Part shown: piece after piece, positions 1,480-16,882 of the stretch
Layout: each line of letters opens with the position of its first letter
Numbering within the stretch: the stretch's first letter is position 1
Source of the DNA: Candidatus Electrothrix yaqonensis
GTDB lineage: Bacteria > Desulfobacterota > Desulfobulbia > Desulfobulbales > Desulfobulbaceae
Assembly (NCBI GenBank): GCA_047651235.1
Contig: CP178758.1
Span: 3,630,001 to 3,662,000, forward strand
Direction: 5' to 3'
Length of the DNA: 32,000 nucleotides
Notes under the pieces: generated by a model
Databases searched by the model: none
Seen by the model: only the letters and a program-made list of their open reading frames with translations
What the model was told of the DNA's origin: nothing
Program-made: the position numbers and the translations under genes

Positions 1480-1697
1480 ATTTTCCTGCAGCCCGACCGG
1501 ACCTGCGGTATTGGAAAAATTTGAAATTATGGGAGAGCGGTACACTTGTCAACCACCCTGCAGGACGACACATCTTACTCTATAAAGCGGCAAATCCGGA
1601 AGTTATTTTCTTCACGTTTCCGTTTTCCTTATCTGAATTTTTTGCTAACTTAAAAAGTTATCTCAGTGCATCGACTCGAAAATTGAGGAAAGCAGAT

Positions 1698-3047
1698 ATG
1701 GGAGCGCTGTCCAGGGCAAAAAAAGAGAAATATACCTGCTATCAACAACAGCTGCAAAGCCGATGTGAGCAGCAGCACGAATTACTGCGGCGACTGCAGA
1801 GAGATCACGCCATTGTTACTGATCCTGCCGTCAAATTCGAGCGGGAGCAACAGATTGAAGCTGCCCGGAGCGAATGTAAGCAGATCAGGCATGACCTGAG
1901 CCTGCTGGAAGATGCGCTGCGGACTGGTGATGACAGCAGAGTGCCTGCGCGATATCAACGTAAGCCCAAGGCTGAAAGCCCAGCCCGGCAGAACCTGCTG
2001 ACTCTGCTGCAGGGGGTCAAATCCGCCTGGATTGAGGGCGTGCTGAAACAATCCCTGCATAACGAGGTACTGATCGAACTGCGCAAAACCCAGGAGGACG
2101 ATGCCGTCGATCGGCTGGAGCAGCCCCTGAACCTCAGCCTGGATAAGCCTGATGCGTCAGAAGAGACCATACTGCTTGATGAGGATATTCAGGAAACTTA
2201 TGAAGAGGCGGGAGGTACTCTGCTGATTCTCGGCGCACCGGGTGCCGGCAAAACCATTTCCCTACTCGATTTAACCCGCCGTCTGGCCAATGATGCTGTG
2301 TTTGATTCCGACCAGCCCATTCCGGTGGTCTTCAACCTTTCTTCATATACAGATAAACGGCAATCGCTGGCAGACTGGCTGGTGGATGAGCTGTGGGCCA
2401 AATACCGCATTCCCACCAAAATAGGGCGAAAGTGGATTGAAGATACGGAGCGGCGACCGCTTGTCCTGATGCTGGATGGTCTGGATGAGGTGGCGGAAGA
2501 TCTCCGTCCGGCCTGTGTGCAGGCTGTGAATTCCTATCGGGAGCAATATGCCCTGCGCGGCATTGTGGTGGCCTGCCGTCATCGGGAATACCGGGAGATT
2601 TCGGGCAAGCTCAAACTGGAGCAGGCCCTGTGTGTTCAACCGCTGACAGACCGGCAGGTTGAAGACTACCTGACCGGTGGCGGTGAGGAATTAGCCGGGT
2701 TGCACGCGGCCCTGCCTGCGGATGAGGGATTCCGGGAGCTGGCCCGTTCTCCCCTGATTCTGAGTATGATGTGCCTGGCCTACCGGGATCAGCCGGTTGA
2801 AACGATTCTTCAGGATGTGGCCGGGACAGCCGAGACCCGGCAGCCCAAGCTCTTTGCTGCCTATGTGCAGAGCATGTTCCGGCGGCCACGCAGCGGGGTT
2901 GAATACGAAGAGGAAAAGACCCGCCGCTGGCTGACCTTTTTGGCGTACAATATGCAGAAGCATGGACAGACCATCTTTCAGATAGAAAACCTTCAGCCGA
3001 GCTGGCTGCTGACAAAAGGTGGGTATAGCTGGAGCAACATAATTTGA
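1698..3047 (+). CDS. NACHT-family STAND NTPase with a coiled-coil-like N-terminus; appears C-terminally truncated or split
   Basis: Walker A LILGAPGAGKT and Walker B LVLMLDGLDEV with NACHT-type spacing, followed by winged-helix-like sequence. The start is placed at ATG 1698 (GAGGA 6-7 nt upstream) rather than the tracked 1521, which overlaps murD. The ORF ends right after the motif IENLQPSWLL, with no sensor or repeat domain. Confidence 0.8.
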   Translation: MGALSRAKKEKYTCYQQQLQSRCEQQHELLRRLQRDHAIVTDPAVKFEREQQIEAARSECKQIRHDLSLLEDALRTGDDSRVPARYQRKPKAESPARQNLLTLLQGVKSAWIEGVLKQSLHNEVLIELRKTQEDDAVDRLEQPLNLSLDKPDASEETILLDEDIQETYEEAGGTLLILGAPGAGKTISLLDLTRRLANDAVFDSDQPIPVVFNLSSYTDKRQSLADWLVDELWAKYRIPTKIGRKWIEDTERRPLVLMLDGLDEVAEDLRPACVQAVNSYREQYALRGIVVACRHREYREISGKLKLEQALCVQPLTDRQVEDYLTGGGEELAGLHAALPADEGFRELARSPLILSMMCLAYRDQPVETILQDVAGTAETRQPKLFAAYVQSMFRRPRSGVEYEEEKTRRWLTFLAYNMQKHGQTIFQIENLQPSWLLTKGGYSWSNII

Positions 3048-3130
3048 ATATGCCCACAAGAGGCATAAGTTTTGCCTTCACGCCTTTCAGATAGCTGATC
3101 CTGTATTCAGTTTATACTGCTCCAGCTATA
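3024..3130. repeat. 107-bp MITE-like block bounded by a perfect 13-bp inverted repeat
   Basis: TATAGCTGGAGCA (3024-3036) is the exact reverse complement of TGCTCCAGCTATA (3118-3130). There is an internal hairpin TATGCC/GGCATA (about 3049-3067). The block carries the NACHT stop codon and two further stops in the same frame. Confidence 0.55.
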
Positions 3131-3143
3131 TTGGTTGTATATC

Positions 3144-3542
3144 ATGTTGTCGCGGCTTTTAAATGGCCTGCTGGGAGGAATTGGGCTGGTGATGCTCTTC
3201 TTGCTAGTTAAGGCTTTTCTTGAACAAATACTCCACATAGAATTCAATCAGACAACAATCTGCCTGATATCATTTTTATTGTTGTTCTTCGGAATAGTGA
3301 CGGCTGGCTGGGCTGGATTACTTCACGGGTTTTACTTGCCTTGCCGTCGTACATGGAAATCAATGAATCTGTATAACACGGCGATATGTTGGCTACCAGT
3401 TATTATTATGGTGTTCGGCCTTGATCAGGCACTTTACAAGTTAGGTGGTGACGAACTTACTCGCATTACCATGATGATAACTGTATCATTATGGGGATTG
3501 TATTTTATTGTTTCAATCGATAGTCAAAACTATGGACTTTAG
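3144..3542 (+). CDS. Small polytopic membrane protein, possibly the detached C-terminal part of the NACHT gene
   Basis: ORF 3135..3542 with ATG at 3144. It has about 4 hydrophobic helices (LLGGIGLVMLFLLV, ICLISFLLLFFGIVTAGWAGLL, ICWLPVIIMVFGL, MMITVSLWGLYFIV). It is in the same reading frame (mod 3) as the NACHT ORF. No recognisable family. Confidence 0.5.
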   Translation: MLSRLLNGLLGGIGLVMLFLLVKAFLEQILHIEFNQTTICLISFLLLFFGIVTAGWAGLLHGFYLPCRRTWKSMNLYNTAICWLPVIIMVFGLDQALYKLGGDELTRITMMITVSLWGLYFIVSIDSQNYGL

Positions 3543-4040
3543 TCCAAGACTTTTAGTAGACTCTCATTTATGAGGCCTTATAGAAAATCATCGTACAACG
3601 TACATGACTTGAAAGTTCACCTGATTTGGATAACAAAATATCGTTACAAAGTGTTAAGTAAAGATATAAGTATTCGAATCAGAGAGATAATACGCCGAAT
3701 ATGTGATTCGAAAGATATTCAAATTATCAAAGGGAATATCAGTCAGGATCATGTCCATATCTATGTGTCATATCCTCCCAAAATATCCGTGAGTGAAATG
3801 GTGCGATTTTTCAAGGGTCGCTCTTCAAAAAAGATTCAGGAAGAATTTCCTCAACTGTCCAGAAGATACTGGGGAAAACATTTTTGGGGTATTGGCTGCG
3901 TTGCTTTGAGTTCCGGACACGTTACTGATGAAATGATACGGAATTATATTGAAAATCACAGAAATGACCCAAATCATAATAATGACGATTTTAAGATAGA
4001 ATAACGACTTTCAGTCGTTACACACTGACTTGAGTCAGCG
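3530..4040 (+). mobile_element. IS200/IS605-family insertion sequence (tnpA only)
   Basis: A Y1 HUH transposase gene is flanked by subterminal hairpins that share a GACT..AGTC core: GGACTttAGTCC (3534-3545), AACGACTttcAGTCGTT (4003-4019) and CTGACTtgAGTCAG (4025-4038). The element is AT-rich relative to its neighbours. Confidence 0.8.
3570..4004 (+). CDS. tnpA: IS200/IS605 family transposase TnpA (Y1 HUH)
   Basis: 144 aa. Contains the HUH motif (DHVHIYV) and a C-terminal catalytic Tyr region (MIRNYIENH), plus the typical LIWITKYRYKVL N-terminus. Confidence 0.92.
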   Translation: MRPYRKSSYNVHDLKVHLIWITKYRYKVLSKDISIRIREIIRRICDSKDIQIIKGNISQDHVHIYVSYPPKISVSEMVRFFKGRSSKKIQEEFPQLSRRYWGKHFWGIGCVALSSGHVTDEMIRNYIENHRNDPNHNNDDFKIE

Positions 4041-5240
4041 GTTTTAATTCTACTTTGGCACTCACAAAGGCTGTGGTAATAATTTGCAATTCCGTTGTTT
4101 CTCATATGCGAAATCAATCGAAGCTTGCCTCTTTTCATGCCGTTGACGAAGCTGTCTTATAACTTCATCTTCGTTTACATCTCGACGTGGAAGAATTGAC
4201 TTGAGTAATGTTGTTATATCAGCGCAACTCAATAACGGGACACCGACTTGATGGTATAATCGTTGCTCGACCATAAACAACATGGCCATCATGACCATAG
4301 TCATATGATGATGCCAAGCCAGCCATCCCCGAGCCTGATAATCACCCATTCCACATTCATTTTTTGCATCCTGAAATGGCCGTTCAACCCAATATCGTTG
4401 AGCTTGCATATATGCAAGTCGTCTTGTTGACGTGTTACTTTCCGCATTACTTAGGCTATATTTAATTTTTTTCGGGGACTTAACCTCACGTCTGACAACT
4501 AATTCTACTTTGGTGACCATACCATTAACTATTTAATAATATTAATAATACTAAAAACAGGGGTTTTTAAATACTTAATAAAAATAAGCTAGTTATGTTT
4601 ATGATCGCCAAAGTAGAACTACTTGACAGTTGTCGGTTTTACCAAGCTGCCCGCACCATTGACGAGAAACCCCAACAGACATTTTACCCTTTTTGGGTAT
4701 CCCGGATTCATCAATAAAAAGAGCGCTATCTTCCTTTCCTCCAAAAATGTTATCCGCATCTTTAGCTACTTGGTTGTTTACAGGACGCCAATCCCAGTTC
4801 GATTCGGAAAGAAAATACTGGAGGGGCTCATATTTAACGCCCGGAACCTTTTCCTCCATACGTTCCATGTTTTTTTGTCAGCCTGGAATAAACCTTTCAA
4901 GTATTGGAATGCTTTATCTGACAAACTTACCGTATGTCTCTTAAAAAAATGATGATATCTTTCGTGAAAAGACGTAAGTTGCCGGGCGATGCCGGTCAAC
5001 TCAAAGAATTTGTCATGGGGACTTCTTTTTTCGGGGCTGGGAGCGTTCATAAAAAGAATAAAGTTATAATCAGGGCGATTGACGGGTATTTTTTTGATAG
5101 CTGTTATCAGGTGCTAGCTTGATCAAAAAGCGATAAAATTTTCCTAATGAAAGATACAACTTTATCCGGATATTGTAAGAAGTTTTTACAAATAGATCAA
5201 AAGGTTATGGTTGACAAAGTAGAATTACTTGGCAGAGAGT
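4041..5240 (-). mobile_element. Decayed IS701-like insertion sequence
   Basis: Outer inverted ends are AATTCTACTTTGG (4046-4058) and CAAAGTAGAATTACTTGGCAG (5217-5237). The interior holds three transposase fragments. A second, inner pair of the same 13-bp motif (4503-4515 and 4607-4619) brackets a roughly 90-bp AT-rich filler. Confidence 0.7.
4062..5050 (-). pseudogene. IS701-family DDE transposase, frameshifted and internally deleted
   Basis: The fragments are ORFs 4778..5050 (N-terminus), 4599..4868 (containing FIDESGIPKKGKMSVGVSRQWCGQLGKTDNCQV) and 4062..4520 (C-terminus, containing YWVERPFQDAKNECGMGDYQARGWLAWHHHMTMVMMA). They overlap in different frames, and the central part of the protein is missing. 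Confidence 0.75.
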
Positions 5241-5397
5241 GAGCAGGTTATTCGGATAAAATAGAAGCCTTCTCCCTTCCCCTATTCCTTCGTCCCGATT
5301 TTTTCAGGGCATTTTTCCGCCCGATCAGGTTTAATGAGCGCAGCCGATTCGTGCGCAAGGCGCATTCATATTTTTTTGTTTCAAGGAGAAAACTGTT

Positions 5398-7329
5398 ATG
5401 GGACAAACTGTTGCAGAAAAAATTATTGCTGCCCATCTGGTGGAAGGCGAGCTGAAAAAGGGGGGGGGAATCGGGCTGCGCATTGACCAGACCCTGACCC
5501 AGGATGCCACCGGCACAATGGCCTACTTGGAATTCGAGGCCATCGGTATCCCCCGTGTCCAGACCGAACTGTCTGTGAGCTATGTTGATCATAATATGCT
5601 CCAATCTGACTTTAAAAACGCGGATGACCATATTTTCCTGCAGGGCGCGGCCCGCAAATTCGGCCTGCATTTTTCCCCGCCGGGCAACGGTATCTGTCAT
5701 CAGGTCCATCTGGAACGTTTCGGCATCCCCGGCAAAACCCTGCTCGGCTCGGACTCCCACACCCCGACCGGGGGCGGCATGGGTATGCTGGCTATGGGCG
5801 CAGGCGGGCTGGACGTGGCGATGGCGATGGCGGGCAAGCCTTTTTACCTGATCATGCCGAAAATTTACGGCATCAAGCTCATCGGCAAGCTGCAACCTTG
5901 GGTGGCAGCCCGTGATGTGCTGCTGGAGATCCTGCGTCAGCTCACAGTCAAAGGCGGAGTCGGGTATATTATGGAATATTTCGGCCCGGGCGTGGCTAAA
6001 CTGAGCCTCACTGACCGGGCAACGATCACCAATTTTGGTGCCGAGCTGGGGGCCACCACCTCGGTCTTCCCCTCGGATGAAAATACCCGCAAATATCTGG
6101 CTGCCCAAGGTCGGGAAGAGCAGTGGCAGGAGCTGTCCGCCGACCCGGATGCCGAGTACGATGAGGTACTGGAGATTGATCTGTCCACTCTGGAGCCGAT
6201 GATCGCCTGCCCGTCCTCGCCGGATAATGTGGTCAAGGTGAGCCAAGTGGCCGGGAAGCCCGTGGCTCAGGTTCTGGTGGGTTCCTGCACCAATTCCTCT
6301 CTGCGTGATCTCACGGCTGTTTCCAAAATCATGGAGGGCCGGGAGGCGCATCGGGATATCAGCTTTGAGGTCAATCCGGGCAGTCGCCAGGCTCTGGAGA
6401 ATCTGGTTGCTCAGGGCGGGGTGCTGCCGCTGCTTCAGGCCGGAGCGCGCATTCACCAATCCGGCTGTCTCGGCTGTATCGGTATGGGCCAGGCCCCGCC
6501 CACCAGTATGAATTCTCTGCGCACTTTTTCGAGAAACTTCCCCGGTCGGTCCGGCAATCAGGGCGACAAGGTCTACCTGTGCAGCCCGGAGGTAGCCGCA
6601 GCTTCAGCCATCAGGGGCGTAATTACGGATCCGCGCGAGCTGGGGGAATATCCCGCCTTTGAGCTGCCCGAGACCTATCTGCCCGGTGATGAACGCATTG
6701 AAGCGCCGTTACCGGAAGAGGAAAGCGCCAAGGTGGAAATCGTGCGCGGCCCAAATATTGCGCCGTTCCCGGAATTCGAGCCGCTGCCCGAAACTTGGAA
6801 AGGCAGGGTGGTGCTCAAGCTGGCCGATAATGTCACCACCGACCACATCATGCCTGCCGGGGCAAAAATATTGCCCCTGCGCAGCAATATTCCGGCCATC
6901 AGCGAGTACGTATTTTCGCAGGTCACGGAGTGCTTTGCTTGTGATATGAAGGAGGCCGTTTCTGCCGGGCATTTCGGAGCCGTGATCGGTGGGGACAACT
7001 ACGGTCAGGGATCAAGCCGGGAACATGCTGCCTTGGCACCGCGCTACCTCGGCGTGCAGGTCAAGCTGGTCAAGAGTTTTGCCCGCATCCATAAGGCCAA
7101 CCTGATCAACTTTGGCATTCTGCCCCTGACCTTTGTTGATCCGGATGATTACGACAGGGTGGAGCAGGGCGCCGAGATGGTGATTCCCAACGTCCGGGAG
7201 GCTGTGGCCTCCGGCGCGGAAGCCCTGACCGTGGAGGTCAACGGCAAGCCGGTCCAGGCCCGCTGCGAGCTCTCCCAGCGGCACCGGGAGATTATGGTAG
7301 CAGGCGGCCTGCTGAACTGGGCCAGGTAG
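5398..7329 (+). CDS. Aconitate hydratase (about 640-aa Aquifex-type aconitase-family enzyme)
   Basis: 643 aa. Aconitase-family motifs are present: GSDSHT, the Fe-S cysteines in VGSCTNSS and SGCLGCIG, and the swivel-domain motif GDNYGQGSSREHAA. The start MGQTVAEKII follows AAGGAGAA. Confidence 0.88.
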   Translation: MGQTVAEKIIAAHLVEGELKKGGGIGLRIDQTLTQDATGTMAYLEFEAIGIPRVQTELSVSYVDHNMLQSDFKNADDHIFLQGAARKFGLHFSPPGNGICHQVHLERFGIPGKTLLGSDSHTPTGGGMGMLAMGAGGLDVAMAMAGKPFYLIMPKIYGIKLIGKLQPWVAARDVLLEILRQLTVKGGVGYIMEYFGPGVAKLSLTDRATITNFGAELGATTSVFPSDENTRKYLAAQGREEQWQELSADPDAEYDEVLEIDLSTLEPMIACPSSPDNVVKVSQVAGKPVAQVLVGSCTNSSLRDLTAVSKIMEGREAHRDISFEVNPGSRQALENLVAQGGVLPLLQAGARIHQSGCLGCIGMGQAPPTSMNSLRTFSRNFPGRSGNQGDKVYLCSPEVAAASAIRGVITDPRELGEYPAFELPETYLPGDERIEAPLPEEESAKVEIVRGPNIAPFPEFEPLPETWKGRVVLKLADNVTTDHIMPAGAKILPLRSNIPAISEYVFSQVTECFACDMKEAVSAGHFGAVIGGDNYGQGSSREHAALAPRYLGVQVKLVKSFARIHKANLINFGILPLTFVDPDDYDRVEQGAEMVIPNVREAVASGAEALTVEVNGKPVQARCELSQRHREIMVAGGLLNWAR

Positions 7330-7351
7330 AAAAGGTAAAAAAAAAGCAGCC

Positions 7352-7384
7352 GGGCAGACTCTCTGTGTCTGCCCTTATTTCTCC
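7352..7384 (+). terminator. Rho-independent terminator after the aconitase gene
   Basis: An 8-bp stem GGGCAGAC/GTCTGCCC with a 7-nt loop, followed by a T-rich TTATTTCT tail. An A-run upstream could allow bidirectional function. Confidence 0.6.
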
Positions 7385-7710
7385 TTACTGTCGCCAGCGA
7401 CTGATGAACCCTCCACTTTCTGCAGAAATACCTGCAGTTCAGGTGAACTGGATTGAGCTGAACCTGAACGCTGCAGCGTGATAGCGGCATCACCCTCCCA
7501 CACCATTCCCAATTCTGACCGAACAGAATCGTCCTGCGCATAAGTGCGTCCAGCTTTTTCTACAAAGAGCTACAACCGGTATTTTGGCTGCAGGCACCCT
7601 CATGAAGCGCATGTTTGGGCGCCAGTAAATCTTCTTATAAAAAATTAAATATTAAATAGAGAACATACCCCTTCCGTCTAATATTATTTTCGATTCAGAG
7701 TATTTTTTTC

Positions 7711-7739
7711 TTGACGCCGTATTTAATATTTTATATCTT
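7711..7739 (+). promoter_or_regulatory. Sigma70-like promoter with an AT-rich UP-like element
   Basis: TTGACG, 17 nt, TATCTT. It is preceded by AAAAAATTAAATATTAAATA and conserved in copy 2. This is a sequence prediction only. Confidence 0.4.
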
Positions 7740-7820
7740 AAGATAAAGAGAAGCTATATCGGTCATTCATTATCCGGCTGCAGCAGCTCAATTTACGAAC
7801 ATAAAAAACTACATAATTCT

Positions 7821-7994
7821 ATGGCAGCGCTTATTCAGTAATAAGTAGGCACCGTGCTTTCCGGTCAGAAACGGAAAGCTGAATAAAGCCACAACCGTCG
7901 CGAGGCGGTGTCGGAAAACTACGGGTCTCCAGAGAGGAGACAGCCGGGTTACCTGCTTTTTCCATTTCACTTTTATACCGGGAGGTAAGTTATG
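7821..7994 (+). promoter_or_regulatory. Conserved structured 5' leader (candidate cis-regulatory RNA or riboswitch), copy 1
   Basis: By my reading it is 100% identical to 12965..13138. Hairpins: CTTATT/AATAAG; GCTTTCCG-GTCAGAAA-CGGAAAGC (7856-7879); CCGTC-GCGA-GGCGG (7895-7908, GNRA loop); GTCTCC-AGAGA-GGAGAC (7925-7941). These are followed by AGCCGGGTTACC and then GGGAGG-N6-ATG (7992). Confidence 0.45.
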
Positions 7995-8247
7995 AAATCT
8001 CCAAAAACAGTATCCCGCCACATTATCTGCCCCCCTTCAAGCTGTACCGGCAGATTTTTCCCTTTATTTTTTAAAAAAAGGAATTGTAGTTTCGCCGATT
8101 CGTTGAGCACCCGCTGCTGCGGATCAGCATAACTATACTTTTCTATACTTTTTGATCGTTTGTTTTTCTGAACAAAAAACTGTGCCTGTAACTGTTATCT
8201 GCACAACCCGACAATAGCTATCCTTATTAACAAGGAGGAGAGATCGA

Positions 8248-11200
8248 ATGAAAAAAAATACATTAACCGCATTATGCCTGGCATCATTGATGCTTACCGC
8301 ATCTGCTGCCCAGGCTCAAGAGACAGCGGATACCGCGAGCTGTGAGACAGCATATGCCTTTGGCAGCAGGGCATTGAGTGAAATTCCCGACCTCAAAAAT
8401 GCACGATGGGGATGGGAAATTATCCTGAACGGAAACGATGCATTAGTTACATCGATTTATGCCGGTGCCGGAGGGGAAGATACCACAAAAGGAGCCTATA
8501 TAGGCGATCTTCGGATTGACAGAAATGACGATCTGGTCACCCTGCAGCTCGATATACTGGAGGGAATATCTCTCAGCGAAACGCATATTTATGTAGGAAC
8601 AGAGGATGTCCCCACAACAGCAAATGGAGGATATGCAAGCCTTACGCAGCAGATAGGAAGACTCGATTCATACGGCAACGGCCTGTATAAAGTTCAACTG
8701 AATGACGAGACCCTCAATGTCGATAAGCTGTATGTTGTTGTTCATCTTAACGCGTGCAAAGGCGGCGATGATCCAAACACAAACACGGAATGCGGTGCCG
8801 ACAGCCCGTGGAAAGGACCGTGGGACAATGCTGTAGAATACAAATCAGGTGATGTTGTTGGATATGAAGGCAGCAGCTATGTCAACGTCTGCTGCGAGGA
8901 GACACCAAGCATAGCAGGCATAGCACCTACTGCCGACTTGTTCGATCCTTTTACTGAGGAAGGTTGCTGGAAACTCGTAGCTGAGAAAGGCGAGCAGGGT
9001 CCTGAAGGCCCCGAAGGTCCGCAGGGTGAAACCGGTCTGACTGGCGATACAGGTCCGCAGGGTCCGATTGGTCCGGTAGGCCCGCAGGGTGATCAGGGTG
9101 AAGTTGGTCCGCAGGGTCCGATTGGTCCGGTAGGTCCGCAGGGTGAAACCGGTCTGACTGGCGATACAGGTCCGCAGGGTCCGATTGGTCCGGTAGGCCC
9201 GCAGGGTGATCAGGGTGAAGTTGGTCCGCAGGGTCCGATTGGTCCGGTAGGTCCGCAGGGTGAAACCGGTCTGACTGGCGATACAGGTCCGCAGGGTCCG
9301 ATTGGTCCGGTAGGTCCGCAGGGTGAAACCGGTCTGACTGGCGATACAGGTCCGCAGGGTCCGATTGGTCCGGTAGGCCCGCAGGGTGATCAGGGTGAAG
9401 TTGGTCCGCAGGGTCCGATTGGTCCGGTAGGTCCGCAGGGTGATCAGGGTGAAGTTGGTCCGCAGGGTCCGATTGGTCCGGTAGGTCCGCAGGGTGAAAC
9501 CGGTCTGACTGGCGATACAGGTCCGCAGGGTCCGATTGGTCCGGTAGGTCCGCAGGGTGAAACCGGTCTGACTGGCGATACAGGTCCGCAGGGTCCGATT
9601 GGTCCGGTAGGCCCGCAGGGTGATCAGGGTGAAGTTGGTCCGCAGGGTCCGATTGGTCCGGTAGGCCCGCAGGGTGAAACCGGTCTGACTGGCGATACAG
9701 GTCCGCAGGGTCCGATTGGTCCGGTAGGCCCGCAGGGTGATCAGGGTGAAGTTGGTCCGCAGGGTCCGATTGGTCCGGTAGGTCCGCAGGGTGAAACCGG
9801 TCTGACTGGCGATACAGGTCCGCAGGGTCCGATTGGTCCGGTAGGTCCGCAGGGTGAAACCGGTCTGACTGGCGATACAGGTCCGCAGGGTCCGATTGGT
9901 CCGGTAGGCCCGCAGGGTGATCAGGGTGAAGTTGGTCCGCAGGGTCCGATTGGTCCGGTAGGTCCGCAGGGTGAAACCGGTCTGACTGGCGATACAGGTC
10001 CGCAGGGTCCGATTGGTCCGGTAGGCCCGCAGGGTGATCAGGGTGAAGTTGGTCCGCAGGGTCCGATTGGTCCGGTAGGTCCGCAGGGTGAAACCGGTCT
10101 GACTGGCGATACAGGTCCGCAGGGTCCGATTGGTCCGGTAGGTCCGCAGGGTGAAACCGGTCTGACTGGCGATACAGGTCCGCAGGGTCCGATTGGTCCG
10201 GTAGGCCCGCAGGGTGAAACCGGTCTGACTGGCGATACAGGTCCGCAGGGTCCGATTGGTCCGGTAGGTCCGCAGGGTGAAACCGGTCTGACTGGCGATA
10301 CAGGTCCGCAGGGTCCGATTGGTCCGGTAGGCCCGCAGGGTGATCAGGGTGAAGTTGGTCCGCAGGGTCCGATTGGTCCGGTAGGTCCGCAGGGTGAAAC
10401 CGGTCTGACTGGCGATACAGGTCCGCAGGGTCCGATTGGTCCGGTAGGCCCGCAGGGTGATCAGGGTGAAGTTGGTCCGCAGGGTCCGATTGGTCCGGTA
10501 GGCCCGCAGGGTGAAACCGGTCTGACTGGCGATACAGGTCCGCAGGGTCCGATTGGTCCGGTAGGCCCGCAGGGTGATCAGGGTGAAGTTGGTCCGCAGG
10601 GTCCGATTGGTCCGGTAGGTCCGCAGGGTGAAACCGGTCTGACTGGCGATACAGGTCCGCAGGGTCCGATTGGTCCGGTAGGTCCGCAGGGTGAAACCGG
10701 TCTGACTGGCGATACAGGTCCGCAGGGTCCGATTGGTCCGGTAGGCCCGCAGGGTGATCAGGGTGAAGTTGGTCCGCAGGGTCCGATTGGTCCGGTAGGT
10801 CCGCAGGGTGAAACCGGTCTGACTGGCGATACAGGTCCGCAGGGTCCGATTGGTCCGGTAGGCCCGCAGGGTGATCAGGGTGAAGTTGGTCCGCAGGGTC
10901 CGATTGGTCCGGTAGGTCCGCAGGGTGAAACCGGTCTGACTGGCGATACAGGTCCGCAGGGTCCGATTGGTCCGGTAGGTCCGCAGGGTGAAACCGGTCT
11001 GACTGGCGATACAGGTCCGCAGGGTCCGATTGGTCCGGTAGGCCCGCAGGGTGAAACCGGTCTGACTGGCGATACAGGTCCGCAGGGTCCGATTGGTCCG
11101 GTAGGTCCGCAGGGTGAAACCGGTCTGACTGGCGATACAGGTCCGCAGGGTCCGATTGGTCCGGTAGGCCCGCAGGGTGATCAGGGTGAAGTTGGTCCGC

Positions 11201-12111
11201 AGGGTCCGATTGGTCCGGTAGGTCCGCAGGGTGAAACCGGTCTGACTGGCGATACAGGTCCGCAGGGTCCGATTGGTCCGGTAGGCCCGCAGGGTGATCA
11301 GGGTGAAGTTGGTCCGCAGGGTCCGATTGGTCCGGTAGGTCCGCAGGGTGAAACCGGTCTGACTGGCGATACAGGTCCGCAGGGTCCGATTGGTCCGGTA
11401 GGCCCGCAGGGTGATCAGGGTGAAGTTGGTCCGCAGGGTCCGATTGGTCCGGTAGGTCCGCAGGGTGAAACCGGTCTGACTGGCGATACAGGTCCGCAGG
11501 GTCCGATTGGTCCGGTAGGCCCGCAGGGTGATCAGGGTGAAGTTGGTCCGCAGGGTCCGATTGGTCCGGTAGGCCCGCAGGGTCCGAAAGGTGATACCGG
11601 CGAATACCCGTTAGGTCAGTGTGACTTCGGTCAGATTCTAACCGGTTTTAATTCCAACGGTCCAATCTGCGAAGACATACCGGTCAACCTGATTGGCGGC
11701 TGCGAAACAGCCTTCGCTCACGGTGATAGAACATTGAATTCCTTCCTTGATACAAACCGGTGGGGATGGGAGATCACTGTAAATCCAGGACAAACGAAGA
11801 CAGGTATCCCGATTTATGCCGGAGCGGGACAGAATGACACCAGCAAGGGAACCCAGGTAGGCGAACTGACTGTAGCCTACACAGGAAACACGGTAACCGT
11901 TACCTACACCATGACAGCAGATGAGATCATCATGAAGGAAACCCATCTGTATGTGGGTGAGGAAAGTGTCACAACTGCAGCACCTGGCCAGTACGGTCTG
12001 CAGGATGAAGGTTTGCTCAATGCAACCACTGATAGCTATACAGTAACTGTCAGCGGCACAAAGTCGGTCAAGGTCGTCGCTCATGCTGTAACCTGTACAA
12101 AAGCGGACTAA
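8248..12111 (+). CDS. Giant secreted collagen-like (Gly-X-Y) protein with the same Cys-bracketed globular domain at both ends
   Basis: 1287 aa. AAGGAGGAG lies upstream of the ATG. Signal peptide: [24 protein letters not shown]-terminal domain 8341-8757. A CBM5/12-like W..W..Y..GDVV.Y.GSSY segment follows. There are 873 uninterrupted G-X-Y residues (8989-11607), then a Cys knot [19 protein letters not shown], then the C-terminal domain 11701-12096. Confidence 0.9.
9025..11580 (+). repeat. In-frame tandem array of 43 units: 26 of 63 nt ([22 protein letters not shown]) and 17 of 54 nt ([19 protein letters not shown])
   Basis: All unit boundaries were checked against the sequence. The order is ABABAABBAABABAABABAAAABABABAABABAAAABABABAB. 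Units of one type are almost identical; the only variation seen is GGC/GGT at one Gly codon. Blocks 9790-10626 and 10627-11463 are an 837-bp duplicate pair. Confidence 0.95.
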
Positions 12112-12144
12112 CAGCGCAGACTGACGGTTAGGATTAAAGCGAAA

Positions 12145-12176
12145 GGAGCAGATCCGAAAGGGTCTGCTCCTTTTTT
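12145..12176 (+). terminator. Rho-independent terminator of collagen-like gene 1
   Basis: GGAGCAGATCC-GAAA-GGGTCTGCTCC followed by TTTTTT. Confidence 0.8.
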
Positions 12177-12178
12177 GG

Positions 12179-12345
12179 TTCCGGTAACTGCCTGCGGCAG
12201 CTTCGCTTTACTTTGACACTGAGAAGTATGTTCCGACCGCCGCCTGAATTTACAGCTTCAAGTAAAACTCAGTGCGGCGTATTTGATGAGATACTGCAGG
12301 TTGCTGCATTGGGTAAAGAAGATAATATGTGATGGAGCCAGAAGG
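12179..12345 (+). repeat. Downstream cassette module, copy 1
   Basis: Matches 16704..16882. Only 3 substitutions in the first ~148 nt (GTTCCGGTAACTGCCTGCGGCAGC...GGGTAAAGAAGAT); identity decays after that. Confidence 0.9.
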
Positions 12346-12360
12346 GAGGAAATTACTCAG

Positions 12361-12453
12361 CTGATGTTACGCACGCAAATAAAAGATCAGTAAGTTACGA
12401 GACACCCAAAACGTGGAATCTGCCGATTTTGCGTTTCGGCTGCGTAACATCAG
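12361..12453. repeat. MITE-like or hairpin element with 13-bp perfect terminal inverted repeats
   Basis: CTGATGTTACGCA (12361-12373) pairs with TGCGTAACATCAG (12441-12453). It shares the GTTACGCA core with the neighbouring element. Confidence 0.6.
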
Positions 12454-12516
12454 TTACAGAGTTAAAAAAGTATAGCTTCCGAAATCCGGTTACCACAACA
12501 AATCTAAGAAGCTGAG

Positions 12517-12631
12517 GGAGTTACGCAGTTGAGAATAAGAAACTCAAGTGTTACAATAGGTTCCTCTTTTAGAGACACAAAACCGTCAGTTGAACAAAAT
12601 CAACGGGTTGTAGATCTAACTGCGTAACTCC
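12517..12631. repeat. MITE-like element with 14-bp perfect terminal inverted repeats
   Basis: GGAGTTACGCAGTT (12517-12530) pairs with AACTGCGTAACTCC (12618-12631). The internal segment 12575-12611 recurs, inverted, at 18647-18673. Confidence 0.65.
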
Positions 12632-12853
12632 TAAAGCTGTTTGAAAAACATGCTTCTAACAATACAGTTTCCGGGATAGATGTTGCAACCGGTATTTTGA
12701 CTGCAGGCAGCCTTATGGACCGTATGGTTGAGCATCAGTAAATCTTCTGTATTTTGCCAAGGTTACGTATCCTGAATATATAAAAAATTAAATATTAAAT
12801 AGAGAACATACCCCTTCCGTCTAATATTATTTTCGATTCAGAGTATTTTTTTC

Positions 12854-12882
12854 TTGACGCCGTATATAATATTTTATACTTT
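12854..12882 (+). promoter_or_regulatory. Sigma70-like promoter, copy 2
   Basis: TTGACG, 17 nt, TACTTT, with the same UP-like AT tract as copy 1. Confidence 0.35.
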
Positions 12883-12964
12883 TAAGATAAAGAGAAGCTG
12901 TATCGGTCATTCATTATCCGGCTGCAGCAGCTCAATTTACGAACATAGAAAACTACATAACTCT

Positions 12965-13138
12965 ATGGCAGCGCTTATTCAGTAATAAGTAGGCACCGTG
13001 CTTTCCGGTCAGAAACGGAAAGCTGAATAAAGCCACAACCGTCGCGAGGCGGTGTCGGAAAACTACGGGTCTCCAGAGAGGAGACAGCCGGGTTACCTGC
13101 TTTTTCCATTTCACTTTTATACCGGGAGGTAAGTTATG
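12965..13138 (+). promoter_or_regulatory. Conserved structured 5' leader, copy 2
   Basis: Identical to 7821..7994 and ends at the same SD-ATG (13136). Downstream sequence diverges after the codons MKSP. Confidence 0.45.
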
Positions 13139-13558
13139 AAATCCCCACCAGCAGTATTCAACCGTAGTATCCCTTCAGTCGTACCCGTAGGTCTTCCGAC
13201 CGCAGACCGCAGTTCCTGTCTTCTTCCTGTTCAGTCAGGAAAGAAATCTCAGTCTGATTATCAGGACAATGCCGAGTACCGGCACGTCCGACTCAGCCTA
13301 TACTGTTCTTCGGTATAATCTGAGCTTTTACAGAGGCTGAGCTGCAGCTTTAATTTAAATTTAATTCATTAACGAACAGGAGAGTACGACCCCGGAAAAA
13401 CGCGATGTATTCCGGTGACACTCCGTATTTTTCAGCTTTGTTTTTAAAAAGAACAGACCCTTAATCCGTCTGAATAGGATCATACCGACTTTTTGATCTG
13501 TACAGATAAACTAATCCCCTGCCTCAGTAAGAGGCAAATAAAAAAAAGAGGAATGATA

Positions 13559-16500
13559 ATGAAGAGAAAAAACGTGTTGACAGCGTTATGTCTGGCATCT
13601 CTGATGCTTACCGCGTCTGCTGTCCAAGCAACAGGCCCCACTGAGCAGGAACTGCAAGCTTGCAATGAAGCAAAGAATATTGAAGATTGCAAGGAGCATG
13701 TGAGGGAGCTGGCGAAGGCTCGGGAAGAGAAGTTGAAGCAGAAAGAGCTGGACCGGGAAGAGAAGCTGAAACAGAAAGAGCTGGACCGGGAAGAAAAGCT
13801 GAAACAGAAAGAGCTGGACCGGGAAGAAAAGCTGAAACAGAAAGAGCTGGACCGGGAAGAGAAACTGAAGCAGAAAGAGCAGGAGTGGGTGAAGAAGAAG
13901 GAGGAGGAGTGCGAGAATCCTAAGGAGAAACCTAAGGATAAGCCTAAGAACCCCCCTAATGACAACCCTGGTCAGAAGCCTACGGCCGGGAAGGATTGCC
14001 AGACGGCGTATGCCTTTGGAGACCGGACAGATGCCAATCCTAATGATGCGGCAGTATATCAATCCGCTGACGGAGAGCTTGATACTTATCTGGGAGATCA
14101 GGTGCTTAACGAGTTGCCGGGTCTCAAGCCGAATCGGTGGGGATGGATGCTTTCCATCTTTAATGGGGATGAGTTTACTGTACCGATCTATGCCGGTGCC
14201 GGAAAAAACGATATTGCAAGGGGCACCCATGTTGGAAATCTGACAGTTATCTACAAGGAAGGTCTGTTAACCGTATCTTTTGGTATGTTTGAAGGATTTT
14301 CTTTGAATGGAAGCCATTTGTACGTAAATAACGGAATAAATGACGGAGAGGAGCATGTGCCCACCTCCGCACCGGGCAGATATGATGACTACAGTATAGG
14401 AAACCGGACATTCGATTCCGCTACAGATACATATACCGTGGATCTTGGAACAGCAGACTTTCCATCTTCTTTATATATTGCTGTTCATAGCGTAGTTTGC
14501 GAAGGAGAACAAGGTGGAGGACAAGGCGGAGGAGGAGACTGCACTATATGCCCGGCAGGGCCGAAAGGTGAGAAAGGTGATCCGGGTATCCAAGGCCTCG
14601 AAGGTCCGCAGGGTCCGATTGGCCTGACTGGTCCGGAAGGCCCGGAAGGCCCGCAGGGTATCCAGGGTGAAACAGGCCCGGAAGGCCCCGCAGGTCCGCA
14701 GGGTCCGATTGGCCTGACTGGTCCGATAGGCCCCGAAGGCCCGCAGGGTATCCAGGGTGAAACAGGCCCGGAAGGTCCCGCAGGTCCGATAGGTCCGGAA
14801 GGCCCGCAGGGTATCCAGGGTGAAACAGGCCCGGAAGGCCCCGCAGGTCCGATAGGTCCCGAAGGTCCGAAAGGCAAAAAGGGCAAAAAAGGTGATCCGG
14901 GCATCCAAGGTCCTGAAGGCCCGACTGGTCCGGAAGGCCCGCAGGGTATCCAGGGTGAAACAGGCCCGGAAGGTCCCGCAGGTCCGATAGGCCCGGAAGG
15001 CCCGCAGGGTATCCAGGGTGAAACAGGCCCGGAAGGCCCCGCAGGTCCGATAGGTCCCGAAGGTCCGAAAGGCAAAAAGGGCAAAAAAGGTGATCCGGGC
15101 ATCCAAGGTCCTGAAGGCCCGACTGGTCCGGAAGGCCCGCAGGGTATCCAGGGTGAAACAGGCCCGGAAGGTCCCGCAGGTCCGATAGGCCCGGAAGGCC
15201 CGCAGGGTATCCAGGGTGAAACAGGCCCGGAAGGCCCCGCAGGTCCGATAGGTCCCGAAGGTCCGAAAGGCAAAAAGGGCAAAAAAGGTGATCCGGGCAT
15301 CCAAGGTCCTGAAGGCCCGACTGGTCCGGAAGGCCCGCAGGGTATTCAGGGTGAAACAGGCCCGGAAGGCCCCGCAGGTCCTCAGGGTCCGATTGGCCTG
15401 ACTGGTCCGGAAGGTCCCGAAGGTCCGCAGGGTCCGATTGGCCTGACCGGTCCGGAAGGCCCCGCAGGTCCGCAGGGTCCGATTGGCCTGACTGGTCCGG
15501 AAGGTCCCGAAGGTCCTCAGGGTCCGATTGGCCTGACTGGTCCGGAAGGCCCCGCAGGTCCTCAGGGTCCGATTGGCCTGACTGGTCCGGAAGGTCCCGA
15601 AGGTCCGCAGGGTCCGATTGGCCTGACCGGTCCGGAAGGCCCCGCAGGTCCGCAGGGTCCGATTGGCCTGACTGGTCCGGAAGGTCCCGAAGGTCCGCAG
15701 GGTCCGATTGGCCTGACTGGTCCGGAAGGTCCCGAAGGTCCGCAGGGTCCGATTGGCCTGACTGGTCCGGAAGGTCCCGAAGGTCCGATTGGCCTGACTG
15801 GTCCGGAAGGTCCCGAAGGTCCGCAGGGCATCCAGGGTGAAAAGGGCGACAAAGGTGATCCTGGCCAGGTAGTAATTAATGTCGGTAACTGTCCAGAAAA
15901 TCAGGTTATGACGGGTATTACCGTCGTGGATGGAGAATTAAGAGTAATCTGCGAGGAGTTCTGCAACTTCACCTGCAGCAGCCAGCCTGTCTGCGGCAAT
16001 GGCATTAAGGAGACAGGTGAAGAGTGTGACGACGGAAACATTTTGAATGGAGACGGTTGTTCCTCTACCTGCACCGATGAGCCAACAGGTGATATTCAGC
16101 CCGGAGACTTCCGGACACAGACGCAGGGCGGATGGGGCCAGGACGAATGCAATGGCGGCAATCCTGCATGCTACCGCAACGATAACTTCGACACATGTTT
16201 CAGCAACGGCCTGATCGTCGGTGACCCGGATGGTCCTGACAGCGACACTTCGTACGCACTCGAACTGACATCATCGGCAGCGGTAGCAGGTTCCCTGCCA
16301 GCTGGCGGTTCCTCCAAGGCACTTACTGCGGACTTCACTGATCCCGGTAACTTGAACCAGATAACAGGTGTATTGGGCGGACAGCTCGTAGCCGCCACGC
16401 TCAGCGTGACGTTCGACAGGTGCGACACCGATTTCGGAGCCAGCAATGAAGAACTCGGCAACTTGGTCTATGCTGCGAGTGCATGTATTAATATGACGGT

Positions 16501-16645
16501 TGATCAGGTGCTTGCTGAAGCGAATACGATCATCAGCGGTGGCGCAAGTACCTTCACCCCAAGCCAGATCAGTGATTGTCTGGCCACCCTGAATGAGTGC
16601 TTCGTGGACGGAACTCAGACGTGCAATAATTTTGTACTGCCGTAA
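13559..16645 (+). CDS. Secreted multidomain collagen-like protein (charged repeats, Cys-bracketed domain, 438-aa G-X-Y region, Cys-rich repeat, C-terminal domain)
   Basis: The start is set at ATG 13559 (AGAGGA 6 nt upstream) because this gives [24 protein letters not shown], parallel to gene 1. The tracked ORF begins at 13493. Layout: [11 protein letters not shown] x5, a PK-rich linker, the domain at 13997-14500, G-X-Y at 14558-15871, then [27 protein letters not shown], then about 185 aa of C-terminal domain. Confidence 0.9.
13721..13885 (+). repeat. Five tandem 33-nt in-frame repeats encoding [11 protein letters not shown]
   Basis: Units begin at 13721, 13754, 13787, 13820 and 13853. The last is degenerate ([11 protein letters not shown]). 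Confidence 0.9.
14558..15871 (+). repeat. Collagen-like G-X-Y coding repeats with 198-bp and 90-bp higher-order periods
   Basis: There are 146 uninterrupted triplets. GGTCCGAAAGGCAAAAAGGGCAAAAAAGGT ([10 protein letters not shown]) recurs at 14864, 15062 and 15260, a 198-bp period. [30 protein letters not shown] (90 nt) repeats from about 15379 to 15780. Confidence 0.9.
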
Positions 16646-16669: not shown

Positions 16670-16703
16670 GGGGCGGACTCGAAAGGGTCTGCCCCCTTTT
16701 TTT
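16670..16703 (+). terminator. Rho-independent terminator of collagen-like gene 2
   Basis: GGGGCGGAC-TCGAAAGG-GTCTGCCCC followed by CTTTTTTT. Same design as the terminator at 12145-12176. Confidence 0.8.
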
Positions 16704-16882
16704 GTTCCGGTAACTGCCTGCGGCAGCTTCGTTTTACTTTGACACTGAGAAGTATGTTCCGACCGCCGCCTGAATTTACAGCTTCAAGTAAAACTCAGAG
16801 CGGCGTATTTGATGAGATACTGCAGGTTGCTGCATTGGGTAAAGAAGATGATGTGTTGATGTATGAGCCGGAGGGAAGTAAC
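16704..16882 (+). repeat. Downstream cassette module, copy 2
   Basis: Matches 12179..12345. Confidence 0.9.

Follow-up and report, generated by a model that had tools for sequence, protein, structure and literature searches.

Two giant collagen-like proteins encoded behind predicted c-di-GMP-I riboswitches in the cable bacterium Candidatus Electrothrix yaqonensis YB6

The chromosome of the cable bacterium Candidatus Electrothrix yaqonensis YB6 carries, in the stretch of 32,000 nucleotides analysed here (contig CP178758.1, positions 3,630,001 to 3,662,000; hereafter the window, in which all positions are numbered), two adjacent genes for giant collagen-like proteins, designated P1 and P2. An earlier sequence-only reading of this stretch had reported the pair, and both are real chromosomal genes of the organism, located on the forward strand with P1 at 8248-12111 and P2 adjacent downstream. 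It is fairly likely that P1 and P2 are exported, trimeric collagen-like proteins acting in a fibre, a matrix, adhesion or a sheath, and that they are probably induced by cyclic diguanylate (c-di-GMP), a second messenger. The strongest functional clue to the two proteins is provided by riboswitches: upstream of each gene lies an aptamer of the c-di-GMP-I (GEMM-I) class. Both aptamers, together with the duplicated flanks of the genes, had been overlooked in the earlier reading.

Collagen regions and riboswitch-bearing flanks

The collagen-like nature of the two proteins is unequivocal. The 873 and 438 uninterrupted Gly-X-Y residues reported before were recounted exactly, and the lengths of the corresponding rods, recomputed at 0.286 nm per residue, gave the same predicted figures of roughly 250 nm and 125 nm. 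The size of 1287 amino acids (aa) given for P1 stands as well, while that of P2, put at about 1029 aa, has to be corrected to 1028 aa; in fact, the listed open reading frame (ORF) of P2 opens at a TTG (13493), and the start is most likely the ATG at 13559, located 7 nt past an AGAGGA sequence. At the DNA level, the collagen regions are near-perfect tandem arrays, with units of 117, 180 and 297 nt in P1 and of 45 and 198 nt in P2 (90-99% matches), for which a chance origin is impossible. Both reading frames are open through the entire arrays and join conserved domains in frame. Position X of the triplets is occupied by Pro in 60% of the cases, whereas position Y in P1 is mostly Gln, Thr, Val or Ile. 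The Gly-X-Y regions are predicted to form trimeric triple helices.

The regulatory region of each gene belongs to a duplicated promoter-riboswitch module of 455 bp. In particular, the first copy holds a promoter-like element (TTGACG-17-TATCTT, 7711-7739), a Shine-Dalgarno (SD) sequence (GGGAGG, 7980-7985) and an ATG at 7992. Both matches to the Rfam model RF01051 are full-length (model positions 1-87) and far exceed its gathering score of 35. The residues contacting c-di-GMP in the Vc2 riboswitch are G20, A47 and C92, with an A at position 20 marking the cGAMP (cyclic GMP-AMP) class and a G at position 47 the 'GGC' variant (PMC4744006, PMC5888326). When Vc2 numbering is placed on the Rfam columns by our own alignment, the equivalents in the two aptamers of the window are G, A and C, so that both are assigned to the canonical c-di-GMP-I class and are predicted to bind c-di-GMP.

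In the leaders, a strong SD sequence precedes a short leader ORF, which starts 35 nt past each aptamer, and the two ORFs have just MKSP in common. The SD-ATG elements at 7992 and 13136 align at the nucleotide level with those of genes encoding two-domain proteins of the family to which the end domains of P1 and P2 also belong (the RWGW family, described below) at five loci of other cable bacteria (L005, L010, L011, L012 and L013). Leader ORF 1 is thus probably what is left of the first part of a two-domain RWGW gene, and, because of this alignment and of the shortness of the ORFs, the whole module resembles the 5′ end of an RWGW gene under riboswitch control that was set before the collagen genes. 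Both leader ORFs may be relics now serving only within the expression platform. No terminator is predicted between aptamer and gene in the 291-nt and 458-nt leaders, and when they were examined by eye and by folding for anti-SD or terminator logic, a 6-bp UUACCU/AGGUAA pairing proved possible but weak. A possibility is that the switch in the window acts via translation of the leader ORF and polarity.

The duplication also includes a segment behind each gene. The flanks are 96-99% identical, and the coding regions that they enclose are, with the exception of the signal-peptide core described below, far more diverged, which indicates that the regulatory flanks were duplicated or homogenised recently. 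In what had been called a paired cassette, what is duplicated are the regulatory flanks around two diverged coding regions.

A scan of genomes with the C-terminus of P1 yielded 62 loci. The best of them belongs to Ca. Electronema halotolerans (82% identity), and others to Ca. Electrothrix laxa, Ca. Electrothrix aarhusensis, Ca. Electrothrix marina and Electronema spp., with distant matches in Bacteriovoracaceae, Myxococcales, Gemmatimonadota and many Flavobacteriia. An aptamer of the GEMM-I clan is located upstream and on the same strand at seven of the ten other cable-bacterial RWGW loci (L005, L010-L013, L015 and L065), while none was found at ten non-cable RWGW loci. At five of these loci, only 26-42 nt separate the end of the aptamer from the ATG of a gene for a two-domain RWGW protein. 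A consensus of seven cable-bacterial aptamers recovers the two-hairpin structure, including 2 compensatory pairs, and the G/A/C pattern at the contact positions is common to the aptamers of the window and to six of the others. At five loci the RF03167 model ('c-di-GMP-I-GGC') was marginally the best; it was rejected, since these aptamers have A, not G, at the position defining the variant, and they were accordingly treated as canonical GEMM-I.

The exception to the G/A/C pattern is the aptamer of L065 (Ca. Electrothrix sp. AR5, QYKS01000623.1, nt 5897-5975), whose end lies 25 nt ahead of a P1-type collagen-like gene. With A at the G20 equivalent and G at the A47 equivalent, it departs both from the pattern for c-di-GMP (G/A/C) and from that for cGAMP (A/A/C), and its ligand specificity may therefore differ.

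The locus L015 of Ca. E. aarhusensis is informative on the sign of the regulation. Here a collagen-like RWGW gene follows 97 nt after the aptamer, whose 3′ strand, GGCCGGUUACC, doubles as the 5′ arm of a strong intrinsic terminator (-25.3 kcal/mol, z = -3.9) carrying a U8 tail. According to standard riboswitch logic, binding of the ligand blocks this terminator, which implies an ON-switch design.

End domains and their relatives

The N-termini of P1 and P2 follow a near-identical design, as had been described: a start rich in M-K/R is followed by a near-identical core ending in [AV]QA, and the n-region, the hydrophobic core and the AQA or VQA cleavage site are all legible. A core of 13 residues (8263-8301 in P1, 13577-13615 in P2) is identical in P1, P2, L015 and the Ca. 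Electronema halotolerans orthologue of P1 (L001). In the DNA coding for this core, 6-7 synonymous changes have accumulated in 39 nt across these four genes of three species, and the signal peptide is held by selection, as the protein core is identical despite such changes. Identity of this kind is unusual for a signal peptide and may reflect a dedicated export or retention step.

Behind the signal peptide, P1 is composed of an RWGW domain, a Cys-rich CBM5/12-like module, the collagen region, a Cys-bracketed motif and a second RWGW domain, with a C-terminus reading ...HAVTCTKAD. The match of the CBM5/12-like module to PF02839 reaches 23.2 bits, under the gathering score of 26.2, and covers half of the model; a PF02839 match recurs, however, in all six P1-type orthologues (best expectation value, E = 5.9e-06), and the best match of a profile of the module among PDB sequences is the chitin-binding domain of chitinase A1 (1ED7, E = 0.015). 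In P2 the signal peptide is followed by charged repeats, an RWGW domain, the collagen region, a Cys-bracketed motif, a Cys-rich acidic repeat and a different C-terminal domain, ending in ...TCNNFVLP. The five charged 11-residue repeats form a probable coiled coil, and the acidic repeat is recognised by both TIGR02232 (45.2 bits, cut-off 20.8) and PF13948 (28.8 bits, cut-off 27). The Cys-bracketed motif after the collagen region, which had been noted as a shared Cys knot, is indeed common to both proteins and is kept in P0001, P0002, P0161, P0209 and L026, but its spacing has to be amended, as three residues and not two separate Cys from Gln (CDFGQILTG, CPENQVMTG).

The Cys-bracketed globular domain said to be shared by the two proteins is also present, in three copies rather than two, since P1 has one at either end. 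The copies are 40-42% identical to each other and have in common C-x-T-A-[YF]-A-x-G, RWGW, IYAGAG, H-x-Y-V and a closing Cys. The AlphaFold2 model of the domain, built with 120 homologues, is a nine-strand beta-sandwich of high confidence (pLDDT, predicted local distance difference test, 96.2; pTM, predicted template modelling score, 0.90). Profile searches of Pfam, NCBIfam, PHROGs annotated with function and PDB sequences returned no match. Likewise, Foldseek searches with the model found nothing with E < 0.01 in the PDB (best TM score 0.37), and only marginal similarity to uncharacterised giant-virus proteins among the viral folds of BFVD (E = 1.4e-3, TM 0.51). The claim of an unrecognised domain is thus borne out for these databases, but the domain is not peculiar to this locus. 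In fact, an exhaustive profile search retrieved 3,720 cluster representatives at E <= 1e-3, of which 979 also reach E <= 1e-30, revealing a large, widespread and unnamed family.

Most members of the RWGW family are two-domain secreted proteins of about 330-350 aa. Large RWGW proteins elsewhere bear sorting domains of the type IX secretion system (T9SS), HYR, PKD, VWD and DUF11-type modules, a domain repertoire that points to a cell-surface or adhesin context. For instance, Por_Secre_tail (PF18962) is present in the relatives P0110, P0150, P0154 and P0155; this T9SS sorting domain was not found by Pfam search in P1 or P2. As a separate observation, the N-terminal domain of the two-domain proteins (L005, L010, L011, L012 and L013) seems to be a circularly permuted RWGW domain, with the E-T-G-W..G..W-A strand at the C-terminal rather than the N-terminal end. 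In addition, the RWGW domains of the P2 type (window 14020-14090, L015 and L038, nt ~10000-10060) hold an acidic insertion, which in L038 (FGDRDGDGLLD) resembles a DxDxDG calcium-binding loop.

The C-terminal domain of P2 belongs to a second unnamed family, with 27 homologues that are mostly small secreted proteins of Bacteroidota, some of them carrying T9SS, Ig-like or SprB modules. Its AlphaFold2 model is also confident (pLDDT 92.8), and neither the Foldseek search of the PDB (best E = 3.2) nor the profile search of PDB sequences gave a useful match. The statement of the earlier reading that LPXTG, PEP-CTERM, lipobox and a C1q/TNF-like head are missing also stands, as the termini gave no sorting or anchor family in NCBIfam or Pfam, and no C1q/TNF-like fold was among the Foldseek PDB matches of the two models. 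Two modules are recognisable, namely the divergent CBM5/12-like module of P1 and the Cys-rich acidic repeat of P2.

The architecture of P1 recurs in L001, L026, L065 (with P0006, a fragment), P0161 and P0209, and N-termini of the P2 type are found in P0003, L015 and L038. Overall, orthologues of the same architecture are present in at least six other assemblies, and the collagen-bearing branch of the RWGW family is found mainly in cable bacteria. The length of the rods is extremely variable: orthologues of the P1 type have from 90 (P0209) through 198 (P0161) and 312 (L026) to at least 2,220 Gly-X-Y residues, equivalent to predicted rods of about 26 nm to >600 nm, an about 25-fold spread. The genes flanking them differ from locus to locus, and tblastn detected no synteny between the flanks of the window and the orthologous loci. 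Concerning L001 (Ca. Electronema halotolerans OW818675.1, nt 1543-10489), its Gly-X-Y runs amount to 150, 1227 and 843 residues, with a frame change near nt 7456 that is possibly an assembly error and an unresolved stretch at 2727-3775. The run of 1227 residues, if real, exceeds the 383-triplet protein of Trichodesmium discussed below.

Proposed role and rival explanations

How these elements might operate together can be outlined as follows. A transcript would start at the duplicated promoter module, pass the c-di-GMP-I riboswitch and continue into the coding region of P1 or P2, and, the riboswitch being part of the transcript, expression would follow cellular c-di-GMP. P1 and P2 would probably be on at high c-di-GMP, that is, in the sessile, matrix-building state. 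Following export by Sec and cleavage of the signal peptides, the Gly-X-Y regions would assemble into the trimeric rods, with the Cys-bracketed motif after the collagen region probably nucleating and stapling the trimer, and the charged repeats at the N-terminus of P2 perhaps helping to nucleate it too. The ends of the rods would act as binding heads for putative targets: RWGW domains at both ends of P1, together with its CBM5/12-like module, and one RWGW head plus a different C-terminal head in P2. Having the same head at both ends, the trimer of P1 suggests a bivalent cross-linker or network former, which might build networks or tether. Once across the outer membrane, P1 and P2 together may form an extracellular fibrous matrix, an adhesive layer or a sheath component, which is consistent with the role as an extracellular fibre, spacer or tether put forward by the sequence-only reading.

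Several observations weigh against this proposal. The aptamers are separated from the downstream start codons by 291 nt and 458 nt, and the SD and ATG belonging to the riboswitch lead into nothing more than short leader ORFs without conservation; moreover, an internal promoter may drive P1 and P2 separately from the aptamers. L001, the closest orthologue of P1, as well as L026, L038 and L064, are devoid of an aptamer in the Rfam search (E <= 0.01), so the link with the riboswitch is frequent, not universal. The CBM5/12 match of P1 falls short of the Pfam cut-off, and no outer-membrane route or anchor is recognisable in either protein by Pfam or NCBIfam. Finally, expression, export and triple-helix formation are predictions.

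Comparison with known systems helps to define what is new. Like Scl1 and Scl2 of Streptococcus, BclA of Bacillus and Lcl of Legionella, P1 and P2 combine a signal peptide, a long uninterrupted Gly-X-Y region (PF01391) and globular flanks, all without hydroxyproline chemistry and with repeat numbers that differ between strains or species. Unlike Scl, they have no LPXTG anchor and belong to a diderm host with an Mla operon; unlike BclA, they lack a C1q/TNF-like C-terminal head. From all three systems they differ in end domains unlike any solved structure, in the same head at both ends of P1 and in the location of the genes behind c-di-GMP riboswitches. Concerning the RWGW domain, its beta-sandwich is shared with the two-domain proteins of ~330 aa in cable bacteria, Bacteriovoracaceae, Myxococcales and Flavobacteriia, and the riboswitch-SD-ATG module is homologous, at the nucleotide level, to that of the cable-bacterial genes among them; these proteins are without collagen, while P1 and P2 fuse the domain to giant rods.

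Riboswitch control of surface proteins has precedents. The c-di-GMP-I riboswitch Bc2 of Bacillus thuringiensis lies on the gene for a collagen-adhesion protein, and GbpA of Vibrio cholerae is a secreted binding protein that also carries a chitin-binding module. As in the window, a GEMM-I aptamer (Vc1) is located in the 5′ leader of the gbpA gene, and it raises expression with c-di-GMP (PMC4744006). However, P1 and P2 are themselves collagen-like rods and not collagen- or N-acetylglucosamine-binding adhesins, and their leaders are long (291 and 458 nt), include a relic SD-ATG and are only predicted to bind the ligand. A further parallel is the collagen-like protein of Trichodesmium erythraeum, with 383 uninterrupted Gly-X-Y triplets, which is likewise very long and occurs in a filamentous multicellular marine bacterium, where its proposed function is to keep filaments or aggregates attached to each other (Layton et al. 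2008, PMC2443231). Its end domains are unrelated and no riboswitch is reported for it, while the cable-bacterial family comprises multiple paralogues with rods of 90 to at least 2,220 residues. In the light of this protein and of the far longer orthologue of Ca. Electronema halotolerans, P1 and P2 are truly giant, as had been claimed, but not exceptional in size. In summary, bacterial collagen-like proteins, longer ones included, were already known, whereas the two unnamed families of end domains, the bivalent architecture, a cable-bacterial family of variable rod length and the control by c-di-GMP riboswitches are new. Indeed, a literature search returned nothing pairing collagen-like proteins with c-di-GMP riboswitches, and nothing linking cable bacteria with collagen-like proteins, riboswitches, c-di-GMP or sheath composition beyond the description of YB6.

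Cable bacteria have not been obtained in pure culture, and few of the proteins in their envelope and matrix are known. According to its description, YB6 makes abundant non-conductive sheaths of "undefined nanofibers", 219 +/- 30 nm thick, whose composition, biosynthesis and function are yet to be determined (PMC12093952). P1 and P2 are concrete candidates for this sheath, provided with a predicted regulatory signal. The narrower hypothesis that they are the nanofibres themselves, with bivalent P1 trimers cross-linking the wall and c-di-GMP gating production, is rather unlikely in this specific form; the likeness between the predicted 250 nm of P1 and the thickness of the sheath is suggestive only. 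If true, a multicellular bacterium would have an extracellular matrix based on collagen, and the sheaths of cable bacteria would become accessible at the molecular level for the first time. More generally, the locus ties a second-messenger riboswitch to collagen-like structural proteins and establishes two unnamed domain families of considerable size, for which the models are confident and no relative has a solved structure, and the rods, being natural hydroxyproline-free collagen designs rich in GPQ, GPI and GPV, may be of interest for biomaterials.

Among the rival explanations, a periplasmic location has to be considered, in which P1 and P2 would be structural envelope components (struts, spacers or cross-links) placed around the conductive fibres or in the lamellae of the cell-cell junctions. 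In line with this, they have a Sec signal only, with no outer-membrane secretion signal or anchor recognisable, and an unusually conserved signal peptide; the collagen-bearing branch was encountered mainly in cable bacteria, which have ordered periplasmic and junction structures of unidentified proteins (PMC11976967). Nevertheless, we regard such a role as improbable: control by a c-di-GMP riboswitch is typical of surface and matrix genes, relatives of both the RWGW and the P2 C-terminal domain are T9SS-exported surface proteins elsewhere, and P1 includes a CBM5/12-like module. A 25-fold spread of rod length would also ill suit a conserved envelope architecture, and proteins of this type go unmentioned in the literature on the conduction machinery that was examined. 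Another explanation is that P1 and P2 are adhesins for gliding motility or cell-cell contact, namely long surface filaments that would hold on to the substratum or to adjacent filaments, comparable to SprB-type adhesins. Cable bacteria glide, RWGW proteins are common in gliding Flavobacteriia, and among the relatives of the C-terminal domain of P2, two have SprB repeats and one has a T9SS sorting domain. The filaments of YB6, in addition, grow entangled in bundles (PMC12093952). The ON design of L015 suggests instead induction at high c-di-GMP, which usually represses motility, and with no T9SS sorting domain in the two proteins and no motility genes nearby in the window, we give this explanation a small chance, slightly below that of the periplasmic one.

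A phage origin of the genes, as tail-fibre genes or prophage remnants, comes to mind because the tail fibres of phages can contain collagen-like repeats and CBM5/12-like motifs. The only matches to tail-fibre PHROGs, two weak ones (E = 1.6e-4 and 8.8e-4), are confined to 30 residues of the CBM-like module, and an IS200 transposase is located 4 kb upstream. This origin is largely refuted and must be deemed extremely improbable, as the 32 kb are without a phage gene, the RWGW and P2 C-terminal domains match no function-annotated PHROG family, the best viral folds are marginal, Sec signal peptides and riboswitch control are present, and the orthologues are found in differing housekeeping contexts; a known phage-fibre head within a prophage, which the earlier reading had named as fatal to its own proposal, was not encountered. 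Hardly more probable is that the long arrays are assembly artefacts or that the genes are decaying pseudogenes. Arrays of 2.6 kb and 1.2 kb made of near-identical units are admittedly hard to assemble, the L001 orthologue has a frame change, neither P1 nor P2 has an exact counterpart in the protein collection, and a short-read contig of the same sample breaks within the duplicated upstream module. On the other hand, the frames are open across the arrays with conserved domains joined in frame, the same architecture is present in the other assemblies mentioned above, and the YB6 genome was closed with Nanopore R10.4.1 reads and Illumina-polished (PMC12093952).

Feature coordinates and chromosomal setting

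Positions of the features of the two genes and their flanks in the window are as follows.

Features of the P1-P2 locus (window positions)
Feature	Position	Strand	Details
Upstream regulatory module, copy 1	7573..8027	+	direct repeats match 12686-13171 at 84-99% identity
c-di-GMP-I (GEMM-I) aptamer upstream of P1	7878..7956	+	Rfam RF01051, 55 bits, E = 2.6e-08; c-di-GMP binding predicted
Leader ORF 1	7992..8132	+	46 codons, behind the riboswitch's own SD
P1	8248..12111	+	collagen-like protein, 1287 aa; Pfam Collagen E = 3.1e-129
P1 Sec-type signal peptide	8248..8316	+	read from sequence, 23 aa
P1 N-terminal RWGW beta-sandwich domain	8338..8763	+	aa 31-172; alignment of three copies
P1 Cys-rich CBM5/12-like module	8788..8988	+	aa 181-247, directly before the collagen region
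P1 collagen region	8989..11607	+	aa 248-1120, 873 uninterrupted Gly-X-Y residues (291 triplets), predicted rod about 250 nm
P1 post-collagen Cys-bracketed motif	11620..11670	+	17 residues; CDFGQILTG
P1 C-terminal RWGW domain	11698..12099	+	aa 1151-1284; AlphaFold2 pLDDT 96.2, nine strands
Intrinsic terminator after P1	12145..12176	+	GGAGCAGAUCC-GAAA-GGGUCUGCUCC then U6; read from sequence
Downstream repeat, copy 1	12169..12330	+	97% identical to 16695-16856
Upstream regulatory module, copy 2	12686..13171	+	direct-repeat analysis
c-di-GMP-I aptamer upstream of P2	13022..13100	+	identical to the first; RF01051 55 bits
Leader ORF 2	13136..13318	+	60 codons, behind the second riboswitch
P2	13559..16645	+	collagen-like protein, 1028 aa counted from ATG 13559; Pfam Collagen E = 6.2e-63
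P2 charged 11-residue repeats x5	13721..13885	+	33-nt tandem repeat, 5 copies, 94% matches
P2 RWGW domain	13994..14506	+	carries a 25-residue insertion
P2 collagen region	14558..15871	+	438 uninterrupted Gly-X-Y residues, predicted rod about 125 nm
P2 post-collagen Cys-bracketed motif	15890..15952	+	21 residues; CPENQVMTG...VIC
P2 cysteine-rich acidic repeat (TIGR02232 / DUF4215)	15959..16072	+	single copy, P2 only
P2 C-terminal alpha/beta domain, unnamed family	16079..16642	+	188 residues; 10-residue motif
Intrinsic terminator after P2	16670..16695	+	11-bp stem, 8 GC pairs, then T-run
Downstream repeat, copy 2	16695..16856	+	162-nt segment after the terminator

The surroundings of the pair are those of an ordinary chromosome, with zero phage genes found in the window. 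Upstream of P1 an aconitase identical to XOF33649.1 of Candidatus Electrothrix sp. YB6 is encoded at 5398-7326, and the Mla operon (MlaC, MlaA, MlaF, MlaE) is located downstream of the pair on the opposite strand. The window also encodes MurD, a NACHT NTPase, an IS200 transposase, a nitrogenase-like protein, DUF533, an asparagine synthase, a sugar transferase and a radical-SAM enzyme. The first 64 nt past the stop codon of P1 share 86% identity with the sequence that follows the L001 orthologue.

An independent short-read contig of the same organism (L063; Logan SRR31704081, 2525 nt) matches window 7330-7722 exactly and terminates within the duplicated upstream module. A break at this point explains why short-read assemblies and protein collections lack P1 and P2 or contain them in fragments.

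Two minor features of the window are of a different kind. The GC content falls to 0.39 (vs about 0.52) at 3000-5000, with the IS200-type transposase (3570-4004) inside this interval, and the NACHT/STAND NTPase gene (1521-3047) adjoins the interval. Moreover, the spacer between P1 and P2 contains two hairpin-type inverted repeats, at 12361-12453 and 12510-12638, one with 13-nt arms (100% complementarity) and the other with 21-nt arms (86%). They have in common the core GTTACGCA(G), found 4 times in the window where 0.17 would be expected, and may represent either a structured RNA or a mobile element of small size.

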